IMG/VR virus record: IMGVR_UViG_3300032011_002687
Location: 3,419-67,418 of that record
Source of the DNA: a virus
Reading direction: 5' to 3' (one strand)
DNA length: 64,000 nucleotides
The notes under the pieces are model-generated. The model saw only the letters and a list, made by a program, of their open reading frames with translations. It ran no database searches and was not told the DNA's origin. Positions within the stretch are counted from its first letter, which is position 1. Each line of letters starts with the position of its first letter. The position numbers were made by a program, and so were the translations under genes. This document shows, piece by piece, positions 14,050 to 35,351 of the stretch.

Positions 14050-14666
14050 AAATAATTATCCATTGTTATTGCAGTATATAACTGATTTTGGGTTTCTTGT
14101 TTGTGTATTGTTTTAGGATGATACAAACTCAATTCCTCTTGTGGTGGGATATGAGCATATGTTTTACAACCTGTAATTTGTTCGTGTACTGGTCGTTGCC
14201 ATCTAATTCTTTTATCATTTTTAAAAACTCTTGATTGGTAATCTGGATAATTAATCCAACCTTGTTCTGTTTGTTTCCAACCCCAAGTGTTTAAGTGTGC
14301 TTGAGTAATACCATCGACTGTATTTATTCTTGGTATCCAAATTAAATCAACTTGATTTATCTCAAGTATTTGTTTTAATTGTTGAACCAATATAACATTT
14401 GGATATTCATCCGCATCTATGTGAAAGATGTAATCACCACTACATTTTTCAATTACAAAATTTTTATGTTTTGCAAAATCACCACCAAGTTTTCTTTGAT
14501 GATGTTCTACATCATATTTCTTAATTATATTTTGAGTTTCTTCATTTGAAAAATCATCAACTATAACAACTTCATCTTCAGAATCTATATTCTCTGTTAA
14601 TATTTCTAATAACTGATTTAACTCTTCGTGTTCATTGTGGACAGTGATTCCATAACTAATTTTCAA
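14046..14666 (-). CDS. Glycosyltransferase family 2
   Basis: ISYGITVHNE, IVDDFS, FHIDADE, VHEQI; TTG start inferred after GAGG. Confidence 0.88.
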   Translation of the reverse strand: MKISYGITVHNEHEELNQLLEILTENIDSEDEVVIVDDFSNEETQNIIKKYDVEHHQRKLGGDFAKHKNFVIEKCSGDYIFHIDADEYPNVILVQQLKQILEINQVDLIWIPRINTVDGITQAHLNTWGWKQTEQGWINYPDYQSRVFKNDKRIRWQRPVHEQITGCKTYAHIPPQEELSLYHPKTIHKQETQNQLYTAITMDNYL

Positions 14667-15162
14667 TTCCAGCCTCAATTTGTTTTTGGAACTTTCGTTC
14701 CATTTCTTTACTAAATTCATCTAATGTATCTTTTGGTATTTTACTATAATCTACTTCAAGATACACTCTTCGTTTTAAACATTCTCTTCTATCAAATGTT
14801 CTGTAATTTTGATATTGACCAACCAATTGTTTTAATCTTTTATACATTACTGATGTTTGTGCTTTTGAAACTCTATCAGGTAAATCTGCTGCAATAGAAC
14901 CCTCTTCAAATTCTAATCCACCAAGTTTACCAAATAATTTTTCAATTTTAGTTTCAGTTAATGGTCTTGTTATTGCGGTATCTAATACTAATCCTGCAAC
15001 AAATCTTTTAATTCTTTTGGTAGTTTTTTTTCTAAATCGTAAATCTGGATTTAACATCAAGATGGTTCTCTTATATCCACGAGTCTCACCTTTTGATTTA
15101 TACATAAAGGTTACTATTTGACCTGGTTCAACTTGATGCCATGCTGTATTCTTTATCGCCAC
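14656..15162 (-). CDS. Hypothetical protein
   Basis: 168 aa ORF in operon, no recognised motif. Confidence 0.6.
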   Translation of the reverse strand: MAIKNTAWHQVEPGQIVTFMYKSKGETRGYKRTILMLNPDLRFRKKTTKRIKRFVAGLVLDTAITRPLTETKIEKLFGKLGGLEFEEGSIAADLPDRVSKAQTSVMYKRLKQLVGQYQNYRTFDRRECLKRRVYLEVDYSKIPKDTLDEFSKEMERKFQKQIEAGIEN

Positions 15163-15623
15163 TAATCAAGGTCCTTGATTATACCCATATCCTTACAAGC
15201 ATCTAAAAACTCATATTGCCCATAGGTTTTTGCAGTTTCTACATCTAATATACTATCGTGACCTTTGTATTTATCATCCTTTAATTCTAATGCAGTTAAT
15301 TTACGAACTTCTGCTAATTTATAGTTCCAACTATTTTGAGTACCATCTGGATAAATTACTCCCAACTTTCCCATATTTAAAACTGATGGAAACCACATAA
15401 GTTTTCTCTCTTCATCATAAAAAGAAATATCATTCATCAATTGTGATGAACCTAATTGTGCTTTTTTAAGTTCTGGTGAATCCCACTCGTATGTTGAATT
15501 ACTTGTGAATCCACAATTAAAACACATATACGATTTAAAATCTTTACCCTCAACTTCTTGAGTATCTTCAAAACATCTCTTGTCATTAAAACAATTTGGA
15601 CAGGTTATTATTTTTTCAGCCAT
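15162..15623 (-). CDS. Hypothetical protein with N-terminal Zn ribbon
   Basis: CPNC...CFNCG pair. Confidence 0.6.
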   Translation of the reverse strand: MAEKIITCPNCFNDKRCFEDTQEVEGKDFKSYMCFNCGFTSNSTYEWDSPELKKAQLGSSQLMNDISFYDEERKLMWFPSVLNMGKLGVIYPDGTQNSWNYKLAEVRKLTALELKDDKYKGHDSILDVETAKTYGQYEFLDACKDMGIIKDLD

Positions 15624-15624
15624 T

Positions 15625-16938
15625 TTACACCTTTTTCAGTTTGGGTAATTTCAACCCTTTATTATCTTCTACTTTATTTAACTTAGGTAGTTTCAATTCT
15701 ACTGCTTTTGGAACTGATTCTACTATTGGGTCAATGATAGATTCAAGTTTATTCTTCATTGATTCATACGAGAATTGCTTCTTTGTGTATGCTTGTAATT
15801 GTTTTCCCTTTACTTGGTACTTACTATAATTATTATGAATCTCACTAAAAACACTTGATGCTACATTATAATTGACTGTAATCCATTTATTTTCTGGACT
15901 ATTGAATGCCATATCCTTTGGAAATGCTTCCATAGGAACTTTAGTTAATGAACCAGGTAATAACTGAGCATAGTTTTTATGTAAGAAATCTACATGTCCA
16001 CTCCAACCTGGTGCAACTACTGGTTTACCACTCTGTGCTGCTTCTAATAATGGTCTACCAAATCCCTCTCCGTGAGTGAATGTGACATGAGCTTTTACCT
16101 TTGGATGATTATACATTTCATTCATCTCATTATCTGTAAAATCTCCGTGTATTAAATAGATATTTGGAAGTTTACTACCAACTATACCTTTTTTGATATA
16201 TTTAATTTTCTTTAAAATATCTTCCCTATCTAATATAGAAAAATCTGCACCACTTGTTTTAAGTAATAAAGCAGGTTGATTTCTTGTATTCTTGAATGTT
16301 TCTAAAAATACTTTAATCAACATACCTACATCTTTTCTATCTTGTCCAATTGAACCACCCAACCAATGACCAGTAAATAAATAACAAAAATCTTCTGTAA
16401 TAGGTTTGAATGCATCTTTAACCGTCTTACCAATCTTCTTGGTTTCCTTATAAACATTTGTATCAACACCCTCAAATAAAACCTCTGATGGTTTTTGCAT
16501 TTTTATTTGTCTCTGTTGTTTCTCATCATTAAATTCTGCTTGTTCGAAAACATTTTTAGAAAACTCTGAAGTGAATATTGTGGTATCCATTCTATTTACA
16601 CCATCTACCCAACTCGGTATTGGTATAGTGGATTCCATTCCAGCTGTCATACCAATATTTTTTTTACCTATTGGTTGAAACTCACTTGGAATAACTATAT
16701 GTAAATGTACATCAGGTTGTTTTTCTAAGTTTGGACCTGAAATTAAATGTGATTTAATTTTATCGTGTTGTGGATTACCATCTTCCAATGCAGTCATCGG
16801 TGTACTTCCCCATCTTACGGAATTAATTTTCACATTGTATTTATCTGATTCAATCAACGCAGAACAAATATCTCGTGAGTGATTTCCGTACCCACTACGA
16901 GTTTTTACTGGTGCTGTTACTAATATTAATGGTTTCAT
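15625..16938 (-). CDS. Glycosyltransferase family 4 (GT-B)
   Basis: SGYG, RKDV, HGEGFGRPLLEA (Ex7E). Confidence 0.9.
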   Translation of the reverse strand: MKPLILVTAPVKTRSGYGNHSRDICSALIESDKYNVKINSVRWGSTPMTALEDGNPQHDKIKSHLISGPNLEKQPDVHLHIVIPSEFQPIGKKNIGMTAGMESTIPIPSWVDGVNRMDTTIFTSEFSKNVFEQAEFNDEKQQRQIKMQKPSEVLFEGVDTNVYKETKKIGKTVKDAFKPITEDFCYLFTGHWLGGSIGQDRKDVGMLIKVFLETFKNTRNQPALLLKTSGADFSILDREDILKKIKYIKKGIVGSKLPNIYLIHGDFTDNEMNEMYNHPKVKAHVTFTHGEGFGRPLLEAAQSGKPVVAPGWSGHVDFLHKNYAQLLPGSLTKVPMEAFPKDMAFNSPENKWITVNYNVASSVFSEIHNNYSKYQVKGKQLQAYTKKQFSYESMKNKLESIIDPIVESVPKAVELKLPKLNKVEDNKGLKLPKLKKV

Positions 16939-16941
16939 ATC

Positions 16942-18378
16942 TTACGCCTTATATGTGTTAACTTTTTTTCTTGGTGTCCATTTTTCAAATGCAGTTTCCA
17001 TATGGTCTATGAAATTTTTACACATCCATCGTGCACTCATCATAGATTCATCTCCACTAACCCATTCGTGTCCTTTGAACCCACACTCATCTCTTGCTTC
17101 TTTACCCATCTCATACCATTCTTTAATCCTAACGGCAGCATCTTGCCAATCACATCTGTCATCAAAAATGTATGGTGTTGGAACTGAACCCATCAATGAA
17201 CGAGTCTTAGGCCAAACTGGTTTACACCACTCACCCCAAGTTAATTCTTCATTGTGTTCCCACTCTTTCCAATTATGTAGAGATTTGATTTCTTTATAAT
17301 CTTCTGCAGTTAAAAGTTTATCATTTACTTTAAATCCTGCTTGGTCTTGTAATCCACCTGTAACATTCACGATGATTGGTGTTCCACTCATTAATGATTC
17401 ACAAGTTCCTAATCCGAATCCCTCGTTGGATGCAAGGTTCATTGTAACATCTGCAATATTGTATAAGAAATTCATTTGTTTATTTTCAAGTTTCTTAGTA
17501 CTAAACACCACATTTATTTCTGGTGCAATAGCATTAATTAATGCTGGTAAATCAGTTCCATTTCCATCAACTGGTTGTGTATGCATTACATATGTAACTT
17601 TATCTCTATCTTCCTTTGGAATGGTACTTACAAATTCTTTAAATGCAAGAATACAATCACCCATCATCTTTCTACGAATATTTCTATTCACATACAATAA
17701 TGTAAATTTATGTGGTTTATTACCTAATAACTCATTCTTAAATTTTCTCATCTCTAACAATTCCGCTTCATCCTTAATTGGATAGAATTGTGTTTCATTA
17801 ATTCCGTGTGGTAAGTATGTAGAATCCCAATCTGTTCTTGGTTTTTTCTTTGCAACCTCATCAACTAACCCAACTGTCTGTTTAGAAATATTCATAATCA
17901 AATCACAACTCTCATAAAAGAACTCGTTGTAATGTGGTGCAGGTAAATCATCCCAAATATTGTAATAGAAAATAGGTATGTTCTGTCTTAACTCGTGTTC
18001 CATATGATACAACCATCCCCAAAATCTTGGGTCTGTGTAGTGTAGAATTGCATCTGGCTTTTCAAGTTCCATAATTTCTTTTAGAATATCTGGATTACCA
18101 TAACCATCAATTGGATAAACTTTTAAGTATCCATCTGTAACACCAGTTTCTTCTTTTACAGCATCGTGCATATCAACCACTTTACCCTTATCTGGATGTT
18201 CTATTGCTCCACCAATCTGAACCCAATCGTATTTATCAATCGTACCCAATACAAATTCTCTCGACATCGTACCAACCCCACTTGACATACGAAGGTCATC
18301 TGATAGTAAAAGAATCTTTTTCTTCTTACGAGCTTGTACTTCTTTTACTGACTTTAATTTTGGTAATTTAATATCCAT
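16942..18378 (-). CDS. Glycosyltransferase family 4 (GT-B)
   Basis: SGVG, NRNIRRK, SNEGFGLGTCES, TGGLQDQ. Confidence 0.9.
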   Translation of the reverse strand: MDIKLPKLKSVKEVQARKKKKILLLSDDLRMSSGVGTMSREFVLGTIDKYDWVQIGGAIEHPDKGKVVDMHDAVKEETGVTDGYLKVYPIDGYGNPDILKEIMELEKPDAILHYTDPRFWGWLYHMEHELRQNIPIFYYNIWDDLPAPHYNEFFYESCDLIMNISKQTVGLVDEVAKKKPRTDWDSTYLPHGINETQFYPIKDEAELLEMRKFKNELLGNKPHKFTLLYVNRNIRRKMMGDCILAFKEFVSTIPKEDRDKVTYVMHTQPVDGNGTDLPALINAIAPEINVVFSTKKLENKQMNFLYNIADVTMNLASNEGFGLGTCESLMSGTPIIVNVTGGLQDQAGFKVNDKLLTAEDYKEIKSLHNWKEWEHNEELTWGEWCKPVWPKTRSLMGSVPTPYIFDDRCDWQDAAVRIKEWYEMGKEARDECGFKGHEWVSGDESMMSARWMCKNFIDHMETAFEKWTPRKKVNTYKA

Positions 18379-18594: not shown

Positions 18595-18636
18595 AATATA
18601 TCCTCAATCATTATATACATATATATAAATATATAC

Positions 18637-19044
18637 TTAATCAATAATAATGTATTTTTTTTCTATTTTATGTGAATACTTTAATGCGGATAATGTACCA
18701 TTAGTTACCTCACCATTAGTACAAAATGCAACTACTTTATCACTATACTCTACTAAATCTTTATTTCTTCTATGATAATGTCCCACATTATATGGTTTAC
18801 CATATCTAAATGATTCCATTACACAATGCATATTATGTGATTCGTGGTATGCAGGAAACTCAGAATATTTTACATCGAAATCTAATGCAAACTTCTTAGC
18901 ATATTTATCTGCTCCATCTTTTGCACCACCACTAACGATTTCTAATCTATTCTTAAACTTTTCTTTTAGTTCCCAAATAAATTTTTGAATCTTTCTGTTA
19001 TTTGTGTAACTCCGACTTCCGATGATTGCTATCTTCACCGTCAT
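18637..19044 (-). CDS. SLOG/DprA-like (YspA-type) nucleotide-binding protein
   Basis: IAIIGSR, IVSGGAKDGAD, RRNKDLV, GT. Confidence 0.8.
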   Translation of the reverse strand: MTVKIAIIGSRSYTNNRKIQKFIWELKEKFKNRLEIVSGGAKDGADKYAKKFALDFDVKYSEFPAYHESHNMHCVMESFRYGKPYNVGHYHRRNKDLVEYSDKVVAFCTNGEVTNGTLSALKYSHKIEKKYIIID

Positions 19045-19480
19045 TTCTTTTTTGTTTTTTGATTGGTTTATCATTTGTAACGAACTCATATATAACTTTA
19101 AATTCTTCTAATCCCTCTATAATATCTTTAGGTTCTACATATCTCCACGAGAATCTTGTATATTGATTCTTAATACCCGTTGCATCTGGTGTAAGGGAAT
19201 CCACCATTTTGTATGACATTACATCATACCATATAAAATCATTTTGTGTATCAAAATAGTATGGTCTGATAATAGTTTTAAAATTTGTGTGCTTTTCACT
19301 TTCCCAACTATCAAGAAAATCTTTTACTTCTTTTGCTTTTAAATCTGGTTCGTGATACCAAAAATATAATCTTGCACTACGAACATCATTTGAAATATCA
19401 GTTAACATCTTTATAATCTCTTCAGTATAACCACCTTTAATAACATCTGGTAAGTACAATCTTATATTTGGATTTATCAT
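18998..19480 (-). CDS. Hypothetical protein
   Basis: 160 aa ORF in operon. Confidence 0.55.
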   Translation of the reverse strand: MINPNIRLYLPDVIKGGYTEEIIKMLTDISNDVRSARLYFWYHEPDLKAKEVKDFLDSWESEKHTNFKTIIRPYYFDTQNDFIWYDVMSYKMVDSLTPDATGIKNQYTRFSWRYVEPKDIIEGLEEFKVIYEFVTNDKPIKKQKRNDGEDSNHRKSELHK

Positions 19481-20343: not shown

Positions 20344-20739
20344 TTATCTACCCCATTTTCCATTTTTAACAATTGTTGCCATAATACCATAATTAGATAC
20401 ATCTAAGAACGCATCTTCCATTGGTTCATCCTTTACAGCATTTACCCTACCACTCATCAATAGAGTTTTCAACCTCTGTATTTTATCGTTCATCCTAAAC
20501 CATAAACCAGTAAGAGATAATTTAATATCCTCTTCTGTTTTTAGTGGTGAACCAACTGATATATTACCTGGGCCATAATCGTGTTGTTTGTGTAGGAACA
20601 ATTCATATTGTTCTCGTTGTAATCTACGAAACTCTGTAGTCATCTCTGGCCATTCTTTTTCCATCTGTGCAATAATATTTGCACTTGTTTTATCAACTAC
20701 TTGTTTTGTAGATTTATCTTTTATATATGTTTCACTCAT
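20344..20739 (-). CDS. DUF1599-like (nucleotide-modification-associated) protein
   Basis: KQHDYG, RMNDKIQRL, EDAFLDVSNYGI. Confidence 0.7.
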   Translation of the reverse strand: MSETYIKDKSTKQVVDKTSANIIAQMEKEWPEMTTEFRRLQREQYELFLHKQHDYGPGNISVGSPLKTEEDIKLSLTGLWFRMNDKIQRLKTLLMSGRVNAVKDEPMEDAFLDVSNYGIMATIVKNGKWGR

Positions 20740-20800: not shown

Positions 20801-21367
20801 TTAAATAATTTTATCGATGATACCATATTCTAAACATTGTGCGGCATCTAAGTATGTATCGTTTCTATTCATTCTCTTCCAAAACTTCACATCCTTGTTA
20901 GTTACTTCTGCAAGTAACTCATTAATATCTTTTGCTAATTCCTTTAAGTGGTCAACACCTCTCATAACATCTGTAGATTTACCAACCTCTACTGCTGAAC
21001 CCTCGTGTACCATCACAGTCGAATGTTTTGTCATTGTTCTTTCACCAGTACCACATGCTAATAAAACTGCTGCAGCACTCATACAAGTTCCAACACAATG
21101 TGTATTCACTTTAATATCCATATTGTGTATATAATCTACCAATCCTAACATAGCATAAACATCACCACCATAGGAAGCAATATTAAGATTTATAGCATTC
21201 AAATGTGGATTTACTCTTACCAAATAATCTAACTTAACTATCGTACTATACAAACTATCAATATCAAATTCAAAATTCATATAGGTAGTGTTGGTTTTTG
21301 AATTAACACCCCACTCCATCTCTGACATTGCGAATTGTTCTTCTTTTTTAAAACCTTGTTCTGCCAT
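20801..21367 (-). CDS. clpP: ClpP-family serine protease
   Basis: IASYGGDV, CMSAAA (Ser), MVHE (His), RNDTYL (Asp), YGIIDKI. Confidence 0.9.
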   Translation of the reverse strand: MAEQGFKKEEQFAMSEMEWGVNSKTNTTYMNFEFDIDSLYSTIVKLDYLVRVNPHLNAINLNIASYGGDVYAMLGLVDYIHNMDIKVNTHCVGTCMSAAAVLLACGTGERTMTKHSTVMVHEGSAVEVGKSTDVMRGVDHLKELAKDINELLAEVTNKDVKFWKRMNRNDTYLDAAQCLEYGIIDKII

Positions 21368-21801
21368 TACTTACTCCATATTTTTTTTAATTGTTTATCA
21401 TCCACACCATATCTCATTATAATGCTTGTTACTTGTTGTTTTGTTAATATATCCAAATGTTGTTCAACTTCTCGTGTACTACATTCAAAGTAATCCACTA
21501 AATGTTCCATAGCCCATTTTTCAACTTTTGATTTCTTTTTAGATTTGGTATATCTAAGAAATGTTCTACCTCTTGGTATTATGTCAATATAAAACTGATA
21601 CAAATTCTTTGGTTTTAGTTCCCAATACTTTTGTATCTCATTTACAACCTCTAACCATTCAGATTTCATACTAAGAAATCGATGTACCATATAGTTACTC
21701 CAAGTTTTTTTATCAGCATCTGATAAGGAGTCCCAATACATAGTATTTTGAACATTAGTAATTTGTTTTATGTGGTCGAATAACGATTTTGTTTTTGCCA
21801 T
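21367..21801 (-). CDS. Clamp loader small subunit (T4 gp62-like)
   Basis: LFDHIK...YMVHRFLS...YFECS pattern; gp44 and gp45 homologues nearby. Confidence 0.65.
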   Translation of the reverse strand: MAKTKSLFDHIKQITNVQNTMYWDSLSDADKKTWSNYMVHRFLSMKSEWLEVVNEIQKYWELKPKNLYQFYIDIIPRGRTFLRYTKSKKKSKVEKWAMEHLVDYFECSTREVEQHLDILTKQQVTSIIMRYGVDDKQLKKIWSK

Positions 21802-21851
21802 AATAACCTTTTGATGTATATAAATAGAGAATATAATCTCTAAAATTTAAT

Positions 21852-22448
21852 TTATTTAAAAGTGTTTCCTGCAACCCAACAAACACTTGTGTACCTTACA
21901 CCTTTAGTAACTGGTGTAACTTGGTGTCCTGCAAATGATGGAAATATAATCAATCTACCTGGTTCTGGTTCAATTATAGTATCATCAAATAATATAAAAT
22001 CTCCACCCTCATATTCATTATTTAAAAATAATACTGCAGTCATTTTAACTATACTGAAATCATCTGATGGATGAAAATCTGCGTGTGGTGTGTACCAATC
22101 TCCAACTTCATATTTATGACCAGTATATTCATTTCTATGAATCCCACCGATATCAAATTTATAATAAAGTTGATTTGCTAGTTTAAATGCGTTCCAATAT
22201 TTTGTTAATATTTCCTCATCCGTATAGAGTGCAACATTTAAGTTACAAACTGCAGGGTCTTTTTTATACTTAGGATTAGAATCTGCACCATAGTAAACAT
22301 CCTTTTGTTTCTTCACACAATCTTTATCAATTCGTGTTATAAACTCATCACACTCTTCTTGAGTAATAAAGTTTTTTCTATCCACCCACCATCTAAAATT
22401 TGGATTAGGTGTAAAGTTCTGTTCTACTGGTTTATACAAAGGTATCAC
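21852..22448 (-). CDS. 2OG-Fe(II) oxygenase (prolyl-4-hydroxylase/PKHD-like)
   Basis: PHAD, YEGGD, FPS..GHQVTPVTKGVRY. Confidence 0.9.
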   Translation of the reverse strand: MIPLYKPVEQNFTPNPNFRWWVDRKNFITQEECDEFITRIDKDCVKKQKDVYYGADSNPKYKKDPAVCNLNVALYTDEEILTKYWNAFKLANQLYYKFDIGGIHRNEYTGHKYEVGDWYTPHADFHPSDDFSIVKMTAVLFLNNEYEGGDFILFDDTIIEPEPGRLIIFPSFAGHQVTPVTKGVRYTSVCWVAGNTFK

Positions 22449-23040
22449 CTATTATAAATTCTTGAATACAATGTCGTATTCCCTTTGTAACTGGAGTTAC
22501 TCTATGAAAAAATATTGGTGAGAATACAATTAAAGTTCCCTTTTCTTGTGGAATTGTATAATACTCCATAGAATGTGGGTCTTGTATAGCAAATTGTGTT
22601 TTACCACCCTCATATTCACTTGGGTCTGTTAATTGTACAATACACGCTAACTTTCTTAAAGAACTTTGACCTGCATTAAAATCTGAATGCCAAGTATAAA
22701 AATCTTCAGTCTCTCCATTATACTGAATCATTTTTATATTGTTTTCTACTTCTTGAATATTAAAGTTCCAAGATAACTGATTCATTACTTTTGCAGATAG
22801 AAATAATTTCTGTTGTATATCTGAATAATCACCCTTTGCATAATCTCTCATATCTTTATGTAAATACCATTCTTTAACACTTCTAAATTCTAAATTATGG
22901 TCTGAACCCATATGTGGTTCTATACAACCTGTCTCACCCTTTTCCGTACTTTTAACCCTTTCAATAAACTCATCACATTCTTCTGGTGTAAAGAAGTTTG
23001 GTTTTGTCATATACCATTGAAAGTTTTCATTCTTTTTCAT
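22432..23040 (-). CDS. 2OG-Fe(II) oxygenase
   Basis: WHSD, RKL, YEGG, HRVTPVTKGIR. Confidence 0.9.
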   Translation of the reverse strand: MKKNENFQWYMTKPNFFTPEECDEFIERVKSTEKGETGCIEPHMGSDHNLEFRSVKEWYLHKDMRDYAKGDYSDIQQKLFLSAKVMNQLSWNFNIQEVENNIKMIQYNGETEDFYTWHSDFNAGQSSLRKLACIVQLTDPSEYEGGKTQFAIQDPHSMEYYTIPQEKGTLIVFSPIFFHRVTPVTKGIRHCIQEFIIGDTFV

Positions 23041-23645
23041 CTTAGTGGTTCTCCTATGTAGGTTTCTCTCATTATAAATCTTTCTCCACTTTTAAGTGGT
23101 GTAACCATATGGTTCGTAAACGATGGGAACATAAATAAATATCCTTGTTTATATGGACATTTAAAAAAATCTTCTTTTTCATTACTAAATGCAAAATGTA
23201 AATCACCACCATCAAAATCTTTTGGGTCGGATATTTGAATCAAGCAAGTTATTTTGTTTAATGATAGTATTCCAGCATCTGTACCCGAATGCCAATTGAA
23301 ATGGTCTCCCTTTTGATATTCAATAGTTCTAAAATCCCCTTGATTTCGTTCAATATCGAATTTCCAAACCCTATCATTTGTAATCTTTACTATAGTATTT
23401 AGTTTATCTACCAACCAACTATAATCATTCTTTATATTACTATTTAATTCTGGTAATAAATATATTTCATTACAATCACGATGGTGAGATGGATTAACTT
23501 TTGTAGGCTCTTCTTCTTGTGGATTATATGTTCCACCTTGAACCCAACTATCTTCACCCTTAACTTTTTTTACTAAATCATTACATTGTTCTACACTAAG
23601 AAATGGTAAATGTATAAACCATTTAAAATCATTGTTTTCTTTCAC
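23037..23645 (-). CDS. 2OG-Fe(II) oxygenase with altered HxD motif
   Basis: WHSGTD, FDGGDL, FPSF.NHMVTPLKSGER. Confidence 0.85.
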   Translation of the reverse strand: MKENNDFKWFIHLPFLSVEQCNDLVKKVKGEDSWVQGGTYNPQEEEPTKVNPSHHRDCNEIYLLPELNSNIKNDYSWLVDKLNTIVKITNDRVWKFDIERNQGDFRTIEYQKGDHFNWHSGTDAGILSLNKITCLIQISDPKDFDGGDLHFAFSNEKEDFFKCPYKQGYLFMFPSFTNHMVTPLKSGERFIMRETYIGEPLR

Positions 23646-24232
23646 CTAAAAGTATCTCCGTGTAACCAACCAACGATGGAATATCTTGAGCCAGAAAGTA
23701 ATGGTGTAATTCTATGTATTACTAATGGATTAAAAATAATTACACTCCCCTTTTTTCTCGTACCCTTAACAAAACTATCACTATCTTTGGTTGTTAATGC
23801 AAACTCTAAATCTCCACCATCATAATCATCACCATCTGATAATTGAACTATAACACTTAATTTTCTCGTTGATTCATCACCTTTACCAAAATCTGGATGC
23901 CATCCATACCCATCACCCTTTACATATTTTAATAGTTTGAAATTCTCGTAAGAATCCCAATCAATATCGTAATTGAAATGTAGTTTATTAGCAACCTTAG
24001 TGAGATTTAATATTTTATCAGTAATTTTACTACTTTCTATTTGGAACTCTGTTGCTTTTCTGTAATCTCTAACCTCACTACCACCCAAACCAACAAGTTC
24101 GGCTCTACTACCATTGGTATTGATTGTGTGTTGAGATTCACCAAAACTTTTATTTTTAATAAAATCTATTTCTGAATCACTTAGAAAGTTTTCCTTTTCA
24201 ACATAATACTTAAAACCATTATTTTTTTTCAT
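23642..24232 (-). CDS. 2OG-Fe(II) oxygenase
   Basis: WHPD, RKLS, YDGGDL, HRITPLLSGSRYSIVGW. Confidence 0.9.
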   Translation of the reverse strand: MKKNNGFKYYVEKENFLSDSEIDFIKNKSFGESQHTINTNGSRAELVGLGGSEVRDYRKATEFQIESSKITDKILNLTKVANKLHFNYDIDWDSYENFKLLKYVKGDGYGWHPDFGKGDESTRKLSVIVQLSDGDDYDGGDLEFALTTKDSDSFVKGTRKKGSVIIFNPLVIHRITPLLSGSRYSIVGWLHGDTFR

Positions 24233-24241
24233 ACTTACTCT

Positions 24242-25768
24242 TTAAGGTCCTTTTGGTGGTAAGTTATGAACTAATATATCACTTGAAAAATAAGTATCAA
24301 TATCCTCTACATCTAATGAATAGAAAGTTTCATCGCTAGTTACTTCGACTGTTGATGTTACCTCTACAAGATTACCATCTTTATCCAGTAGTTCATCACC
24401 AACTTCAATTTCAAATCCTCTAAGGAACTTATACTCGCCTGCTCGTTTTACAAATATCATCCCCATCCAACCAAACTTATAAGTATCATTTATTACATAA
24501 TGTTCTGGCTGTACATTAGAAGATACCTCAAGTACAACTGAACCACTCGAAACACTATTGGTTAAATCTGTTGATGAATATGCTGCAAAATCGTGGTCAC
24601 TTAAACTCATTCCAACTGGTTGATATGATTTAACCACATCACCAACTTCTACATCTTGTATTTGTTTAGTACTACCATCATACATACGAATTAAACTTCC
24701 ACTCGGTGTTGTAGTACCTCTATTTGCAAGTAGTTTCCACTTATACCAATCATTATCTGCAGATGAACTTACACCTGTAGGTGGATTTATTTGTATGTAT
24801 TGTGGACTATAATAAGAACACAATACATCTGTATGTTGTGGTGTGAATAATACATATGCCCTACCAGTCCCTAAGTATTTATTTCCATTACTATCTAAAC
24901 TACCAGAAGATGGAATAAATTTTTCTGGATAAGTAGATATACCAGCACTCGTCTCAATATCATACCAATATGTCATACTCTCTTTATAATCCGAATTTGA
25001 TTCCCAGGTTTGTTCAACTCCATCCGCATCTACATAGGTAGATGAGTATATATTCTGTTGTTCTGCATTACTTACATATGAGTTAAAACTTATATTGAAT
25101 GGACTAACTAATAATGAACCATCTTCAGTTTTAGATTTTAAAACAAAATCTGGCCAAGTTCCTACACCAGTATTAGCTGTAACTGATGATGAAACAAAAT
25201 TATCTATAAATGTCTCACCAACATTTGCACTCTGAAGTATAGTTCTAAAATTAGTTTTATCCATAGAACCAGTACCCATTCTATATAATGTATCATCTGC
25301 TCCGTAACCATTTGGTGTATCAACGAAAAGATGAAATTTACTTGAAGATGCCTCTACACGAGAATTAACATATGGTGCTGAACTCTCATAAACAAAAGAA
25401 GAACTTATGTTATGATTAGCAAAACTTGCGGATATACTTTGAAGTTTAGTTTGTCTTGGATTTTGCATATCTGCCCAAGTAGAACCATAAACATTTACAC
25501 TACTATAACTTTGTGTAACAGCATATTGTGCAATTCTATCAAAGAAATCCGAACCTTGTACTGATAAAGGTATCTGTACACTTGGATTTGTATTAAACTC
25601 AAATATTTTTGTATCATTACTACCACTCTCAATAGTAAAATCATATGCACCAATAAATGCTGAATAACTATGGTCTGGCCAATCTCCTGCACTACCTGTT
25701 ATGTAATCACTAAGTTCTTTTACTTTAGCGTTTACATCTGATTTTTGTGTATAATTTACTATACTCAT
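24242..25768 (-). CDS. Circularly permuted ATP-grasp-like domain fused to C-terminal Hint (BIL/intein-like) domain
   Basis: YDF...KIFEFNTNP, MDK, PDFVLK, EKFI, GRAYVL in permuted order; Hint GSLIRMYDGSTKQIQDVEVGD...YSLDVEDIDTYFSSDILVHN followed by LPPKGP. Confidence 0.7.
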   Translation of the reverse strand: MSIVNYTQKSDVNAKVKELSDYITGSAGDWPDHSYSAFIGAYDFTIESGSNDTKIFEFNTNPSVQIPLSVQGSDFFDRIAQYAVTQSYSSVNVYGSTWADMQNPRQTKLQSISASFANHNISSSFVYESSAPYVNSRVEASSSKFHLFVDTPNGYGADDTLYRMGTGSMDKTNFRTILQSANVGETFIDNFVSSSVTANTGVGTWPDFVLKSKTEDGSLLVSPFNISFNSYVSNAEQQNIYSSTYVDADGVEQTWESNSDYKESMTYWYDIETSAGISTYPEKFIPSSGSLDSNGNKYLGTGRAYVLFTPQHTDVLCSYYSPQYIQINPPTGVSSSADNDWYKWKLLANRGTTTPSGSLIRMYDGSTKQIQDVEVGDVVKSYQPVGMSLSDHDFAAYSSTDLTNSVSSGSVVLEVSSNVQPEHYVINDTYKFGWMGMIFVKRAGEYKFLRGFEIEVGDELLDKDGNLVEVTSTVEVTSDETFYSLDVEDIDTYFSSDILVHNLPPKGP

Positions 25769-25806
25769 TAACTTCTCCTAATGATACTTTTATTCATATA
25801 TAAATA

Positions 25807-26226
25807 TCATATTTTTACATTATAGTTACTATTTAGGAACATCTTCTGTGCGGATTTATTCCAACTATCTGATTGTGCCCACCAAGTATCCCAATCTTGG
25901 CAATATCTATGTAGTGAATTAACAATCTCACCACCTATACCTTTATTTCTATATTTAGGATTTACATAGATATTACATATTTCCCTTGTTTCTGTATTTA
26001 ACCAACCCCAACCTTGAATTATTGATTGTGGATTAAATACTACAAACTTCCATCCATTGTCTAATCTGATTTTTGCTTTAGGTAAATCCCACATACCATC
26101 CCATTTGATTATTGAATTAAAGTAATCTATCTCATATTGTAAATTATATAAGGTACACTCATCATAATCAAACGATGGACATAAATCAGATACTTCTGCA
26201 TCCTCTCTGTTGATGCTGAACAACAT
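25807..26226 (-). CDS. GNAT-family acetyltransferase
   Basis: IYVNPKYRNKGIG acetyl-CoA motif A, WNKSAQKMF. Confidence 0.85.
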   Translation of the reverse strand: MLFSINREDAEVSDLCPSFDYDECTLYNLQYEIDYFNSIIKWDGMWDLPKAKIRLDNGWKFVVFNPQSIIQGWGWLNTETREICNIYVNPKYRNKGIGGEIVNSLHRYCQDWDTWWAQSDSWNKSAQKMFLNSNYNVKI

Positions 26227-26228
26227 CT

Positions 26229-26477
26229 TTAAGGTGTTTCTAAACCTGTACCCTTTAACATCTCTTTTGGTACTTGACCACAATTACCACAACTAAATAC
26301 TTCAATTGGAATTAATCCCTCTTGACCATTTGGTGACATAATTGCAGATATCTTTTTGATAATTGTTGATGTTATAAATAAATAATTACCACACGCTTGA
26401 CAATTTAATGTATCTGCTTTACTTAAATCTAATTTCTGTTGTGGTTTACCTATTGGTTTTTGTGCTTTCATATTCAT
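26229..26477 (-). CDS. Small Zn-ribbon protein
   Basis: CQACG...CGNCG. Confidence 0.65.
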   Translation of the reverse strand: MNMKAQKPIGKPQQKLDLSKADTLNCQACGNYLFITSTIIKKISAIMSPNGQEGLIPIEVFSCGNCGQVPKEMLKGTGLETP

Positions 26478-27397
26478 TTTACTTTTCCTATTATCTCAAC
26501 AAACATTGCCATAGCATTTATTTCCTTATCCACTACTACTGCATCACTTTGTTGGTATTGACTCAATACTAAGATACATTCTGCTACATGTCCTCTACCC
26601 CAATCATCGACTGTATCAAATAACAACCTAAACATATCACTAAAATCTGTAACTTTGGAATCTGCCAATAGTTGTCGAATGTTCTTAAAACTATTCTTCT
26701 TATCTTGTGTTTTCAAGATTTCTAAAACTTCTAACTTGTAATCGTTTTGTGTACTCATCGCTTCATCTATAACGAGTTTTTCATCTACTACTTGTCTCTG
26801 AGCAGCATTGATTACTCTTCTGATATCGGGATAACCACCATTTACTATCGTTACGATATCATCTACTTTTGCATCTACCGATTCTTTCTGTAAGATATTC
26901 GACATATGCATCGCGACTTGTTTTCTATCGGGTGGGATAATCTGAAAGGATTGACATCTTGATTGGATTGGGTCAATTATTCTTTCAACATAATTACAAG
27001 TTAGGATAAACCTACAATGTTTTGAAAATGTTTCCATTAGATTTCTTAATGCTGCTTGAGCATTCGGTGTAATATAATCACACTCATCTAATATTATAAT
27101 CTTCATCTCTGAAAATCCAAGTGTTGATGCGAAGTTCTTTACTTTATCACGAACTACATCTACACTATTTTCATCAGATGCGTTAATATATAAATAATCA
27201 CAATCTATATTATTAACGAGTAATTTAGCGAGAGTGGTTTTACCTGTACCTGCACGCCCATACAATAATAAATGTGGTAAATCCCCACTCTCCAAATACA
27301 CCTTTACCTTACTCTTGAGATGTTCATTCCCAATGTAAGTTTCAAGCGATTGCGGCCGATACTTTTCTACCCATAGGGTATTTTTAATTTCTTCCAT
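26474..27397 (-). CDS. Clamp loader ATPase subunit (T4 gp44/RFC-like)
   Basis: LWVEKYRP, GRAGTGKTT, ILDECD, SRC motif. Confidence 0.95.
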   Translation of the reverse strand: MEEIKNTLWVEKYRPQSLETYIGNEHLKSKVKVYLESGDLPHLLLYGRAGTGKTTLAKLLVNNIDCDYLYINASDENSVDVVRDKVKNFASTLGFSEMKIIILDECDYITPNAQAALRNLMETFSKHCRFILTCNYVERIIDPIQSRCQSFQIIPPDRKQVAMHMSNILQKESVDAKVDDIVTIVNGGYPDIRRVINAAQRQVVDEKLVIDEAMSTQNDYKLEVLEILKTQDKKNSFKNIRQLLADSKVTDFSDMFRLLFDTVDDWGRGHVAECILVLSQYQQSDAVVVDKEINAMAMFVEIIGKVK

Positions 27398-27398
27398 A

Positions 27399-27959
27399 CT
27401 ATTCCTTTATTGCATCTTGTTCTAAAAATATCTGAACACTCCATCGAATACCAGATGTAACTTCATTTACCCAATGTAAATGTTTATCTGCTATCCAAAC
27501 ATACCCAGCATCTTGTTTCATTGTTCTAACACCATCGTTAGTTTCAAATTGTAATTCTCCACCCTCATATTCACCATACTCTTTATCAGATAATTGAATA
27601 CCAATCGTAAAACATCTCTTCCTTAGAATTTCACCCTCAGTACCTGTCATAACATCATCTATATGTGGTTTAAAATAACAACCTTTACTATAGTGACATA
27701 TTATCATTGAGTAACCAAGATTATCAATGTTTAAATCTAAGGTATCTGTCCAATCCTTAATCCTATTATAAACCCAAGATATATCATAAGGTGAGTTACC
27801 CCAAGGCAAAGTATCTGATAACATTTTACTACCAACCTTTTCATATTCGTTATGGTAGACATCAATTACTCTAACTTTTAATTTAGCATATGATTTTATT
27901 TTTTCACATTCTTCTTTAGTAAATAATCTTTTTTCTATTAAAGTTTTTTCCATATCCAA
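27399..27959 (-). CDS. 2OG-Fe(II) oxygenase
   Basis: PHID, YEGGEL, HWVNEVTSGIRWS. Confidence 0.88.
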   Translation of the reverse strand: MDMEKTLIEKRLFTKEECEKIKSYAKLKVRVIDVYHNEYEKVGSKMLSDTLPWGNSPYDISWVYNRIKDWTDTLDLNIDNLGYSMIICHYSKGCYFKPHIDDVMTGTEGEILRKRCFTIGIQLSDKEYGEYEGGELQFETNDGVRTMKQDAGYVWIADKHLHWVNEVTSGIRWSVQIFLEQDAIKE

Positions 27960-32612: not shown

Positions 32613-35351
32613 TTAAAAATCAATAGTTAATCCTATGTTTGCATATCTTGGTGTTCCAAGAAATACTTCAGAATTATGAGCTAAGTGAAGTTTATCACCA
32701 TACCCATTGTATTTACTATTGTCAACGGCATCTTGTACGAAAACTTCATCAAGTGCGTTAAAGATGTGACCTGTAATAGTCAAATCTAAACCACCAATAC
32801 TTGGAAGTTTGTAAGATGCGTGTAAATCAAGTTTTGAGTAACCAGGAGCTTCCCAAACTTGTGTTCTATCTGCAACTCCATCAGAATCCACTTCTCTTGA
32901 ATCAGGACTCCAATCTGCATAGTTCTTATCATATACATTGTAAAGTGCTTGTAATCTCAATCCCTTAATAGGTTTAAGTGTTACACCCAATATATAAGAT
33001 GATTGTGGTTGGTCACCAACAAATAAACCATCAAGTGCATATGCATATTCAGTAGTTTGATAACCAATTACTTGGTTGTCATCGTTATATTGAGATTCTT
33101 GGTAAGTACCATTGGCATCACCATCGAATTTCCAACCACCGAATGAAGCAATTAAATCAAGTTCTACCATATCGTGTGGTAATACTTTTACTTCAAGTTC
33201 TGTACCTTGATGTTTCTGATTAACACCTCTTAAAAAGATTACATCAGTATCACCTGAATCACCTTGACCCGTGTCAACATTACGAGTAAGGTTTCTATCT
33301 TTCCAATCTGTGTTATATACGGAAACATTAACTGCAACTTTATCATTTGCATATCCCAGTCCAACTTCTGTTGATAAGAATTTCTCATTATCTGGGTCGG
33401 ATGAGACCGTACCAGAATAATCAATTACATTATCAAGAATTGGTGCTTTTTCTACATATCCTGAGTTGATGAATGAAGTAACACCTGGAATAATTTCATA
33501 GTGTACTCCACCTTTAACTTGAAATGATGAAATAGCATCGGCAGTAATTTTCTCGTTTTCTACTGAAAAATGGTCTTGATATGAGTATTGAATAGATGAT
33601 ACCCCACCCATTCCATATACATTTAGATTATCTTTCGTGTAGTTACCTTGAACAAATCCACCTAACCAATCGACAGTAGTAGTGTTGTGATAAGCAATAA
33701 TATCACCTAAACCAACAACTTTCCCATCTGGTGCATTTTTATCTGCAAAATCAACATAGTAATCACCACCTAATAAATCACGAACTTCACGAGCGTGTTC
33801 TATTTCAGCAGTTCTCCAGTCAATACCTGTCTGAAACTCTAAATTATCATTTACTTTGTAATTTAATTTAGAGATTAATCCGTATGTGTCCTGTCTGTTG
33901 ATTGAGTTTCTAAGAATACCTGTGGAACGCTTGTCTGTTTCAGAGTAATCAGCATCGATATTAGTACGATTCTGTTCAATCTCTCCATTCCAATCCCACA
34001 TCCAAGGCGAACTTGAATACCAAGCATTATCTGCTACAGCAGGTGTTCTCATTACACTACCATAAGTACCAGTTCCACCACCTGAACCACCACTCCAATA
34101 AAGAACTGATGATAATTTAGTTTTATCATTTATCTCTAAAAAGTGATTTAGATTCACTAATGGTTTATGGAAGAAATTCTCCCTTTCATTAAGAAAGTTT
34201 GAATTGTATCTTTTGGTTGTGTTTGCTCCATACATATACCAATATTGTTCTCCAGTGTAGTCGGAACTAACTGGTGCCCAATTTTGACTAAAGAATCTAC
34301 CAGCTTCAGTTTCGAATTTGTTACCCTCTGCAAAAGCATCAGTATCATATCCGTCAATATCACCAGCTAACTCTTGTGAGTAAGTAGCAATATTCTGTTT
34401 GTATAGATTTTGTCCGTGTCTTTGTGGAGCACCGATTGCATACAACTCAAATCGTTGTTTATCGGATACTGCGTAAGAACTTCCAAAATAATAAGCCCAA
34501 GCATCTGTCCAGTTTCCATCAATGATACCATCACCAGTCTTACGAACAATTGTTCCAGCCAGTGCAAGTTTATCACCAATTAAACCTGTATTATAGTTAA
34601 TAGTAGTTTTAAGAAAACCACCATCTCCTGTTTCTTGTTTGAACTTACCACCCTTTTCATATTTAGCAGGGTCTGTAATGATATTCATAGTTCCACCAAT
34701 AGAAGGTGTTGCTAAATTAACAGCAGATAGTCCTCTTTGTAACTGAATAGATTGAGCAGCATCTGCAACTCCATCCCAATTACTCCAATAAACCCATCCG
34801 TTCTCCATATCATTTTGGGGAACACCATTAATCATTACCGCAACATTTCGTTGGTTAAATCCACGAACATTGATTCTTGCATCACCAGCACCACCACCTT
34901 GTTGAGTTGCATATACACTTGGTGTAGTATTCAAAGCCATTGGAACATCTTGAGAACCTAATCTCAATTCCATTTCTTCTTTACTAACCATTGAATAAGC
35001 AACAGGTGTTGTTGCAACAGCTCTTGAAGCCAAAACTTCAACATCTGTTAGAGTAAGAGCATCAACTGCCAAAGCAATATCTACTTTTACTTCACTATCA
35101 CTCACAACAACCTCTTTAGATTGAGATGAGTATCCTATGAATGAAGCAGTAATAGTATAAGTTCCAGCTTCTACTGAAATTGTAGTAAGACCTGTCTCGT
35201 TAGTAACACCACCGAGTTCAGTTCCCTCTACCACTACATTTGCTCCAACCAAAGGGTTATATTCTGCATCTTTAACATCAACAACGATGGATTGAGCGAA
35301 CAATCCTGTCATCAATACGAAAGATGCTATTAGTTTACGATATATATTCAT
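32613..35351 (-). CDS. TonB-dependent outer-membrane receptor
   Basis: Signal peptide, carboxypeptidase-regulatory-like domain (GANVVVEGT...SFIGY), plug (RINVRGF...VMINGVP...GGTMNIIT), beta-barrel, C-terminal F. Confidence 0.95.
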   Translation of the reverse strand: MNIYRKLIASFVLMTGLFAQSIVVDVKDAEYNPLVGANVVVEGTELGGVTNETGLTTISVEAGTYTITASFIGYSSQSKEVVVSDSEVKVDIALAVDALTLTDVEVLASRAVATTPVAYSMVSKEEMELRLGSQDVPMALNTTPSVYATQQGGGAGDARINVRGFNQRNVAVMINGVPQNDMENGWVYWSNWDGVADAAQSIQLQRGLSAVNLATPSIGGTMNIITDPAKYEKGGKFKQETGDGGFLKTTINYNTGLIGDKLALAGTIVRKTGDGIIDGNWTDAWAYYFGSSYAVSDKQRFELYAIGAPQRHGQNLYKQNIATYSQELAGDIDGYDTDAFAEGNKFETEAGRFFSQNWAPVSSDYTGEQYWYMYGANTTKRYNSNFLNERENFFHKPLVNLNHFLEINDKTKLSSVLYWSGGSGGGTGTYGSVMRTPAVADNAWYSSSPWMWDWNGEIEQNRTNIDADYSETDKRSTGILRNSINRQDTYGLISKLNYKVNDNLEFQTGIDWRTAEIEHAREVRDLLGGDYYVDFADKNAPDGKVVGLGDIIAYHNTTTVDWLGGFVQGNYTKDNLNVYGMGGVSSIQYSYQDHFSVENEKITADAISSFQVKGGVHYEIIPGVTSFINSGYVEKAPILDNVIDYSGTVSSDPDNEKFLSTEVGLGYANDKVAVNVSVYNTDWKDRNLTRNVDTGQGDSGDTDVIFLRGVNQKHQGTELEVKVLPHDMVELDLIASFGGWKFDGDANGTYQESQYNDDNQVIGYQTTEYAYALDGLFVGDQPQSSYILGVTLKPIKGLRLQALYNVYDKNYADWSPDSREVDSDGVADRTQVWEAPGYSKLDLHASYKLPSIGGLDLTITGHIFNALDEVFVQDAVDNSKYNGYGDKLHLAHNSEVFLGTPRYANIGLTIDF

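Follow-up and report, generated by a model that had tools for sequence, protein, structure and literature searches.

Several described systems resemble, in one part or another, the gene block that is the subject of this analysis: six genes at 21852-26226 of a 64,000-nucleotide stretch of viral DNA (the window; positions 3,419 to 67,418 of IMG/VR record IMGVR_UViG_3300032011_002687), which encode a GNAT acetyltransferase, a 508-amino-acid (aa) protein and four iron/2-oxoglutarate (Fe/2OG) oxygenases. The N-terminal domain of the 508-aa protein is most readily compared with E. coli YgiC, YjfC and GspS (the GSP_synth family of Pfam), enzymes that join the C-terminal carboxylate of a peptide to an amine; the order of their motifs appears to recur in it, a putative D...E-x-N metal site preceding the putative ATP-binding lysine. 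The RefSeq product name of both YgiC and YjfC is "peptide--spermidine ligase", a naming that reportedly goes back to Pederick et al. 2023. Eukaryotic glutathione synthetase (1m0w, 2hgs) is a permuted ATP-grasp enzyme like the phage domain, and so is the glutathione-synthetase-like ligase Cp1B of E-64 biosynthesis (9cjn); the E-64 pathway, in the parts of PMC12568646 that describe it, also pairs an enzyme of this kind with an Fe/2OG oxygenase. The C-terminal domain belongs to the Hint domains, and for it the best structural matches are the bacterial intein-like (BIL) domains (2lwy; BIL2 of the BUBL locus, 6tmm/6y75); Hedgehog and Hog proteins (1at0 and 6tyy among the structural matches) likewise consist of cargo followed by a C-terminal Hint. 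Tandem, non-identical 2OG oxygenases are found in another marine T4-like phage, cyanophage Syn9 (gp41-gp54); the sections of Iyer et al. 2010 on these arrays call them unprecedented and their products unknown (PMC2938197). The bacterial neighbourhoods treated in the same paper likewise combine an amide ligase with tailoring enzymes, and a peptide-derived product or the modification of a peptide was proposed for them.

The phage protein differs from each of these. Unlike the GspS family, its ligase domain has no detectable profile relationship to those enzymes (hhalign E 0.19-0.27; TM-scores 0.36-0.43), and we know of no member of that family with a Hint domain. It is about 10% identical to glutathione synthetase and Cp1B, has 345 residues against their ~470, and is viral and fused to a Hint. 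As in BILs, the Hints stand at the end of the host protein with no nucleophile after His-Asn, so that by analogy cleavage rather than splicing would be expected; unlike in BILs, the first Hint (Hint1) lacks Cys1 and has mostly lost the block-B His (8/55), and its cargo is a predicted enzyme where BUBL has a ubiquitin-like domain. Unlike Hedgehog, the protein has no sterol-recognition region, and the window member has only the degenerate Hint; in longer members the terminal Hint, ending ...VSDESDT without His-Asn, is what would be expected of a Hedgehog-like domain that cuts on its N-terminal side only. The arrays of Iyer et al. 2010, in the sections devoted to them, are neither anchored by a ligase-Hint fusion nor placed between genes 44 and 62, and the words 'Hint' and 'intein' have 0 occurrences in the main text of that paper (PMC2938197). 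The GspS genes of phages 44RR, phiPMW, Lu11 and phiW-14 are, in the passages that report them, ordinary Pfam-recognisable genes without a Hint (PMC1524935, PMC5587285). We found no publication on the ligase-Hint family or on a phage ATP-grasp and intein-like fusion, in a search that did not extend to the amidoligase survey of Iyer et al. 2009, and none linking marine T4-like phages, ATP-grasp and 2OG-Fe. Permuted ATP-grasp ligases, BIL-type Hints and phage dioxygenase arrays are all known; their fixed combination is new.

A model of aa 1-345 was built with AlphaFold (AF2) from a 72-sequence alignment and has a predicted local distance difference test score (pLDDT) of 89.9 and a predicted TM-score (pTM) of 0.87. 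Foldseek returned 41 matches to it in the PDB at E<=1e-3, and every one listed is a permuted ATP-grasp ligase. Yeast and human glutathione synthetase (1m0w, 7.7e-7) and E. coli YgiC and YjfC (7uka, 8.1e-7) lead the list, which continues with GspS, trypanothione synthetase and homoglutathione synthetase, 7uk6 and 2io7 being further top matches from the YgiC/YjfC/GspS group; the same fold was matched with the full-length model. Feature neighbours in the ESM-Atlas were clusters of ATP-grasp_3, TTL, YheCD and GshA (0.90-0.92), which serve as leads only. Residue conservation was counted in an alignment of 55 sequences (A4), to which all fractions of 55 in this text refer. D43, E57, N59, D207 and E282 are invariant, K211 and K171 are each conserved in 54, and position 303 is Arg in 41 and Lys in 13. 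An annotation previously made from the letters of this DNA alone (the sequence-only reading) had proposed a permuted ATP-grasp and listed its motifs; the modelled fold is the one it named, its motifs are present, and the residues it picked are the most conserved of the domain. In the non-significant hhalign comparison with YgiC, YjfC and Gss (E 0.19-0.27), D43..E57-x-N59 falls on YgiC D102..E115-x-N117 and the PDFVLK211 strand on YgiC YVVK302, and these four YgiC residues (D102, E115, N117, K302) are invariant among the three E. coli paralogues. The models thus support assignment of the N-terminal domain to the fold of the glutathione synthetase / GspS / YgiC class, although membership by profile fails. 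The putative Mg-ATP site looks intact, and ATP-dependent carboxylate-amine ligation is the activity that we would predict for the protein. Wider searches added little: phmmer against 1.84 billion cluster representatives gave 24 matches, all from the protein's own family (11 full-length with the Hint, the rest fragments); the best 120 matches of a YgiC homologue search comprised only relatives at >=77% identity, so little depth was gained; and a structural search of BFVD with the N-terminal domain gave no relative (best E 0.03).

The full-length model (pLDDT 84.9, pTM 0.75) is all-beta from about residue 346 to 502. Foldseek matches this part to the BIL of Clostridium thermocellum (2lwy, E 7.8e-11, TMt 0.82, root-mean-square deviation 2.8), then to BIL2 of the Tetrahymena BUBL locus (6y75, 3.4e-10) and to many inteins and Hedgehog (1at0), whereas Pfam Intein_splicing and PT-HINT reach only 17.9 bits, below their cut-offs of 35.8 and 27.7. 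For a comparison of Hints and tails we assembled 187 distinct sequences of at least 380 residues from the database matches, the open reading frames (ORFs) of 80 viral loci and the window. Block F/G was present in 186/187, and His-Asn ends the Hint in 184 of the 186; in A4 H501 and N502 are both invariant. The residues needed for a cut on the N-terminal side have fared differently. No Cys was found at position 1 in A4; residues 353, 354 and 358, any of which might occupy that position, are Ser or Thr in 49/55 apiece, none being invariant; and the block-B His is kept in 8 sequences, with Tyr in 44 and Trp in 3. The window protein retains Thr353/Thr354 and the block-B residue His423, so that N-terminal cleavage activity is conceivable in this member. 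Because the residue following Asn502 is Leu or Ile in 52/55, with no splicing nucleophile, Hint1 is not a splicing intein but BIL-like or degenerate. As judged from these residues, it is probably half-disabled, the N-terminal-side cut being lost in most members and the terminal His-Asn kept. The sequence-only reading had placed a self-cleaving Hint after the ligase: the domain is confirmed by its fold, and of the self-cleavage the terminal His-Asn stands while the N-terminal-side cut mostly does not.

Whether the residues behind His-Asn form a real tail or are random or absent had been left as a check. The tail proves not to be random: it begins with [LI]P in 180/186 sequences and conforms to [LI]P-x0-2-[KR] in 169/186; Pro504 is conserved in 54/55, and position 506 is Lys in 44/55 and Arg in 9/55. 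What follows this Lys or Arg varies (nothing, K, D, E, GP or GGGGA). In the full-length model residues 505-508 have pLDDT <50, which speaks neither for nor against docking of the tail. The family is divided almost equally into 91 short and 95 long forms (n=186). In the long forms the tail (IPPK, IPPRK, LPPK, IPPGK etc.) is followed directly by one to three further Hints that start with Cys (IPPK|C, IPPRK|C). These match BUBL BIL2 by sequence at 5e-15; some end in His-Asn, and the last often ends ...VSDESDT without the Asn. Since the extra Hints start right after the tail, their self-cleavage would leave the C-terminus of the short form. These sequences suggest that the tail is the native C-terminus of the family, kept by functional constraint, and that the extra Hints are additions which can be removed. 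One contig from an RNA library leaves the window sequence at 24268, shortly ahead of the stop codon, and the part that diverges codes for a Gly-rich tail that matches the LPPKGGGGA tail of a 94%-identical database protein; the residues after the conserved Lys therefore vary even between very close strains.

The oxygenases follow the ligase-Hint gene on the same strand. All four score above the cut-off of Pfam 2OG-FeII_Oxy_3 (PF13640; 29.5-53.7 bits against 27) and are mutually 25-35% identical, as befits the four paralogous proteins of prolyl 4-hydroxylase (P4H) type that the sequence-only reading had described; its contiguous, single-strand block of six ORFs was also correct. Oxygenases of the PF13640 type are best known as protein prolyl hydroxylases. 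Three of the four have the iron triad and 2OG-binding Arg as HxD..H..R; oxygenase 2 has HxG..H..R, with the second His and the Arg intact. The HxG form was found in 21/274 oxygenases of the related loci described below, always in the second oxygenase after the ligase gene (orthologues include L016:3554-4156 and L018:4833-5435). Sister sequences within the 45%-identity group of oxygenase 2 read WHADYD, and as the Asp at +4 thus also occurs in HxD sisters, it does not represent a new compensating ligand. Nor was an obvious one found when a relocated iron ligand of the HygX type was looked for, the residue four before the second His being Ser in the window protein. An HxG or HxA motif is a hallmark of Fe/2OG radical halogenases, and oxygenase 2 is, on its motif, a candidate halogenase or an enzyme with an altered iron site. 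A predicted complex of the full ligase-Hint protein with oxygenase 3 scored 0.00/0.01, which is evidence neither way.

The conservation of this arrangement was followed in related phages. A pattern scan of IMG/VR matched at least 585 stretches; 166 of those examined encode a relative, and the best 80 loci were kept. They come from related phages, several of them near-identical, and are no independent samples. All plus-strand ORFs of these loci and the window (81 loci) were clustered. In 79 loci the sequence runs on for at least 700 bases beyond the ligase gene, and in 76 of these an oxygenase comes next. The exceptions are L011, with an Asp/Asn-hydroxylase-like protein, and L023 and L024, where a methyltransferase-like gene precedes the oxygenases. 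This adjacency persists down to 36% protein identity, and it answers a further check of the sequence-only reading, namely whether homologues keep their oxygenase neighbours. The number of oxygenases between the ligase gene and gp62 is 0, 2, 3, 4 and 5 in 1, 7, 16, 31 and 3 of 58 loci, respectively. At 45% identity they form orthologous groups, one of which, the group of oxygenase 3, has 78 members and is represented in every one of the 78 loci that carry oxygenases; a second has 68 members. The place of the GNAT is looser. It scores well as Acetyltransf_1 (34.3 bits against a cut-off of 20.7) and only weakly as RimI (E 2e-4, 21.4 bits against 86.4), and its cluster occurs in 48/81 loci. It is present in 27 of the 34 that hold both gp44 and gp62, and as a direct upstream neighbour of the ligase gene it appears in only 29 of the 67 loci with enough upstream sequence. 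The GNAT is common without being universal, a weaker association than the sequence-only reading had it.

The block lies exactly between gp44 with its adjoining Zn-ribbon gene (26229-27397) and the gp62-like gene, and its own genes meet at tiny or overlapping junctions. The remainder of the gp44-gp62 gap is highly plastic in the relatives, where at least 15 gene clusters come and go. Among them are tailoring-type enzymes: a radical SAM-SPASM protein (L009:4984-6018), a B12-binding radical SAM protein (L006:7793-9802), a SET-domain protein (L057:7340-7723), a sulfotransferase (L011:2098-2643), a Zn-dependent dehydrogenase (L044:3655-4626) and a fragment of an AMP-binding enzyme (L009:6643-7389). 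A QueC-like protein, a family 2 glycosyltransferase and a methyltransferase-like protein (weak match) are also found, and clusters c6, c12, c19 and c25, which stand beside the ligase gene in relatives, have no Pfam or PHROG match. The gap is a hot spot that collects peptide- and protein-tailoring enzymes. L001-L004, which are the nearest relatives at 94% identity, carry two ligase-Hint paralogues that share 49% identity and stand on either side of the GNAT (L001:5867-7414 and L001:8001-9533), together with an extra 234-aa gene without known function; the window has one copy. The block contains no separate precursor gene with a leader and variable core of the kind that marks ribosomally synthesized and post-translationally modified peptides (RiPPs), and no recognition-element family was matched in Pfam or NCBIfam. 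The Zn-ribbon ORF was considered as such a precursor and rejected, being conserved along its whole length and not variable. The only candidate for a RiPP 'core' in the block is the ligase's own tail.

We propose tentatively, at somewhat less than even confidence, that the block is a lineage-specific module which acts in trans to build and modify a peptide-like product with an amide link, and which is anchored by a phage-specific carboxylate-amine ligase. The folds, conserved residues, tail and synteny are observed; from them we infer the catalysis, the class of substrate, the cooperation of the genes and the time at which they act. The module sits in the gap between genes 44 and 62 of marine T4-like phages that form an uncultured clade, and its ligase is fused to an old BIL-type Hint that in most members can probably no longer cut on the N-terminal side. 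Behind this gene stand two to five P4H-type oxygenases, two of them from core orthologous groups. The ligase would turn a carboxylate into an acyl phosphate and couple it to an amine, while the oxygenases would hydroxylate and the GNAT acetylate the same substrate; this may be a peptide, the terminus of a protein or a conjugate of a peptide with an amine, from either host or phage. Transcription of the module would go together with that of the replication genes, and the place of the module among these genes argues weakly against a late, virion-directed role. A precedent for such gene content is offered by the bacterial neighbourhoods for peptide-derived metabolites, which, as the sections on them in PMC2938197 set out, join ATP-grasp/COOH-NH2 ligases, dioxygenases, GNATs and methyl- or sulfotransferases.

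A number of points weigh against this proposal. At 0.36-0.43 the Foldseek TM-scores of the N-terminal domain are modest, which is in keeping with a relative that is smaller and has several lobes, and the residue equivalences are plausible but unproven. Residues 1-345 have no match in Pfam (E<=0.1), NCBIfam, PHROGs, PADLOC or a PDB profile search; GSP_synth has none anywhere in the record at E<=10, and hhalign with YgiC, YjfC and Gss stays below significance (E 0.19-0.27). The very strong conservation of blocks A and F/G of Hint1 is not explained by a merely vestigial domain. The loci belong to related, partly near-identical phages, so common ancestry rather than function may be what keeps their genes in order; and as the ligase family and the orthologues of the core oxygenase are both absent from catalogued phages, phylogenetic distribution cannot separate the two. 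Contigs from RNA libraries, described below, are compatible with transcription but no proof of it, since carry-over of DNA is possible.

Other readings of the same locus must be set beside this one. The 508-aa protein could be a small-molecule enzyme that, like GspS and YgiC or like Cp1B, forms a low-molecular-weight amide such as a peptide-polyamine, with the oxygenases acting on the metabolite or its precursors and the Hint serving as a structural or oligomerisation appendage. All its close structural relatives are small-molecule ligases, Cp1B among them at Foldseek rank 50; the E-64 pathway and the canonical GspS genes of the four phages named above provide parallels, and the variable neighbours include a dehydrogenase, an AMP-binding enzyme, a sulfotransferase and a B12-radical SAM protein. 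We find this possible but on balance doubtful, given that the SET-domain and radical SAM-SPASM neighbours point to peptide or protein substrates, that the oxygenase type is best known from protein hydroxylation and that the extreme conservation of Hint1 and the tail would be left unexplained. Hypermodification of DNA, in which the module would decorate phage bases or their precursors, would explain the location in the replication cluster, between gp44 and gp62 and near the DNA polymerase, the ribonucleotide reductase, the DUF1599 protein and a weak DNA-methylase-like gene. Some relatives have QueC-like and radical-SAM genes in the same gap, and phiW-14, which has putrescinyl-thymine DNA, is one of the phages with a reported GspS-like gene. 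However, the oxygenases are of the P4H/PKHD type, not the AlkB or TET/JBP type, none of the genes of the block was recognised as a base-modifying transferase, hydroxymethylase or kinase, and we know of no precedent for this ligase class acting on DNA, all of which makes the idea very improbable. There may also be no functional module, the ligase-Hint gene and the oxygenases being independent accessory genes that are adjacent through the gene order of the lineage, with the ligase perhaps a dead enzyme that acts as a binding protein. Oxygenases are indeed common without the ligase (292 records of catalogued phages match oxygenase 3, at no more than 30% identity; none of these records holds an orthologue of it or the ligase), and the flanking replication genes are equally syntenic. 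But adjacency is kept in 76/79 loci, to 36% identity, within a gap where at least 15 clusters are exchanged, and the putative catalytic residues are invariant; we judge independence to be improbable.

The conserved tail invites two further explanations. In the one, which develops an idea of the sequence-only reading, the free tail [L/I]-P-x-K-COOH of the 508-aa protein would be hydroxylated by the neighbouring P4H-type enzymes, activated at the alpha-carboxylate by the protein's own ATP-grasp domain and joined to a polyamine or a lysine of a target protein; the protein would be a single-use tagging device, with a logic analogous to pupylation or to RimK/TTL chemistry on protein C-termini. What makes this attractive is that the ligase class acts on peptide C-terminal carboxylates (GspS, YgiC and YjfC ligate them to spermidine, going by their RefSeq product names) and that the family presents a defined free C-terminus, the motif being kept in 169/186 sequences and Pro504 in 54/55, with the Cys-Hints of the long forms placed exactly so as to regenerate it. 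A P4H of chlorella viruses hydroxylates Pro-x-Pro-Lys repeats. We nevertheless hold it to be unlikely: the tail is undocked in the full-length model, though at low confidence, the residue bearing the terminal carboxylate is not fixed, as those after the Lys or Arg vary, and a stoichiometric enzyme-substrate protein would be costly. In the other, Asn502 would cyclise and, in long forms together with the Cys of the next Hint, free a peptide of 3-9 residues to be matured like a RiPP by the oxygenases and the GNAT. Conservation of His-Asn (184/186) and of the tail fits such a micro-peptide, and in the long forms a potential cleavage site lies on either side of the tail. The yield, however, would be one tetrapeptide per protein of 450-900 residues, the tails of short forms end at variable residues, and the N-terminal ligase would be left without a role. 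With no leader and core organisation, recognition element or hypervariable precursor gene, and with the Zn-ribbon gene conserved, we consider this extremely improbable.

The coordinates of the features are listed in Table 1. The source record comprises 67,418 bases, with a CheckV completeness of 33%. The GC content is ~32%, and almost all genes are carried on the minus strand. The block is surrounded by replication genes of the T4 type: a family-B DNA polymerase, a class II ribonucleotide reductase, a DnaB-like helicase, a 5'-3' exonuclease, a RecA/UvsX homologue, gp32, and the clamp-loader gene gp44 with the gp62-like protein. Among catalogued phages gp44 reaches at most 47% identity, which indicates that the lineage is uncultured. 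A 10-kb megablast against the catalogued phages gave no match, and tblastn with the 508-aa protein gave a single one there, to the Hint region in Phage NCTB; by these searches the lineage is without a relative in the catalogue.

Table 1. Features of the block and its flanking genes, with window coordinates
Feature	Coordinates	Strand	Evidence
gp62-like clamp-loader small subunit	21367-21801	-	PHROG 225, 2.3e-17; Pfam Phage_clamp_A, 4.4e-4
Oxygenase 4, P4H-type Fe/2OG, HxD..H..R	21852-22448	-	Pfam, 4.3e-14
Oxygenase 3, core orthologous group (78 members, 78 loci)	22432-23040	-	Pfam, 8.9e-12
Oxygenase 2, H-S-G instead of HxD (WHSGTD)	23037-23645	-	Pfam, 1.5e-6, 29.5 bits against 27
Oxygenase 1, P4H-type Fe/2OG, HxD..H..R	23642-24232	-	Pfam 2OG-FeII_Oxy_3, 1.3e-13
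508-aa ligase-Hint ORF	24242-25768	-	ends ...VHN-LPPKGP
Tail LPPKGP, aa 503-508; family motif [L/I]-P-x(0-2)-[K/R] + 0-5 residues	24245-24262	-	homologue comparison
Hint1 domain, aa ~346-502, BIL-like, ends His501-Asn502	24263-24733	-	Foldseek of full-length model
Ligase domain, aa 1-345, predicted circularly permuted ATP-grasp	24734-25768	-	AF2 model and Foldseek, conserved residues
GNAT acetyltransferase	25807-26226 (internal ATG; ORF from TTG 26283)	-	Pfam Acetyltransf_1, 3.2e-8
Zn-ribbon protein, CxxC...CxxC, 82 aa	26229-26477	-	found in 54 loci, alignment conserved
gp44, clamp loader	26474-27397	-	tblastn matches annotated clamp loader
Fifth oxygenase, upstream of gp44	27399-27959

Other genes of the window deserve mention. 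Directly after the gp62-like gene are a ClpP-family protease (20801-21367, minus strand; Pfam 1e-29) and then a DUF1599 protein ('nucleotide modification associated domain 1'; 20344-20739, minus strand), both kept in many related loci. Beside the DNA polymerase, a 912-aa ORF (32613-35351, minus strand) contains CarboxypepD_reg-like domains followed by a TonB-dependent-receptor Plug (Pfam 1e-14 each). This is the N-terminal architecture of SusC-type outer-membrane receptors, uncommon for a phage gene and perhaps a sign that the host belongs to the Bacteroidota. Glycosyltransferase genes, two of them GT1-like (one also matching 'GT4 in conflict systems') and one GT2, form a series at 14046-18378 on the minus strand, downstream of a SLOG/DprA-like gene (18637-19089).

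A phage promoter just upstream of the 508-aa gene, as suggested by the sequence-only reading, was not upheld. The motif TATAAATA at 25799-25806 lies on the plus strand, whereas every gene of the block is on the minus strand; the coding strand of this intergenic gap reads TATTTATA. The window holds 16 copies of TATAAATA on both strands against 14.6 expected from shuffles, and 39/100 shuffles reach 16. Three of these copies (18624-18631, 21819-21826 and 25799-25806, all on the plus strand) do fall in the few short intergenic gaps, on the non-coding strand and with TATTTATA on the coding strand, and 12/16 are on the plus strand although that strand is T-rich. The intergenic copies may represent a signal read on the other strand, or chance.

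The family is not confined to this record. Database searches yielded at least 328 proteins at E<=1e-3, and 166 viral-contig loci were confirmed among the pattern matches examined. A 6.1-kb stretch of the window is near-identical (share >=0.93) in 14 public marine or seawater runs, 10 of which are possible sources of the window DNA. Four RNA-library runs yielded contigs that match portions of the ligase, oxygenase and GNAT genes at 95-100% identity; one of them, for example, extends over 558 bases (24444-25001) with no differences. Portions to which no such contig maps carry no information.

The ligase-Hint family is thus common in the ocean, and it makes a new use of the Hint domain, in which one half-disabled copy is fixed in an enzyme and one to three intact, apparently removable copies are stacked behind it. 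We think it unlikely that the protein is a self-priming conjugation device, whose Hint-exposed [L/I]-P-x-K C-terminus would be hydroxylated by the P4H-type oxygenases, activated by its own ATP-grasp domain and coupled to a polyamine or a target lysine. If this were true, it would amount to a virus-encoded protein-tagging chemistry, like that of ubiquitin or Pup, made from an ATP-grasp ligase and a Hint, and would supply the first natural substrate for the abundant 2OG oxygenases of marine phages. Of the "auxiliary" genes of these phages that still lack an explanation, those for Fe/2OG oxygenases rank with the most frequent, and they are enriched in seasonal viral populations, according to the part of a Western English Channel time series that deals with them (PMC11561400). 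In the loci compared here, two core oxygenases of this kind stay linked, down to 36% identity, with one specific partner gene, that of a predicted amide ligase with a conserved, Hint-defined C-terminus, which provides a concrete and testable lead on the substrates of these enzymes.

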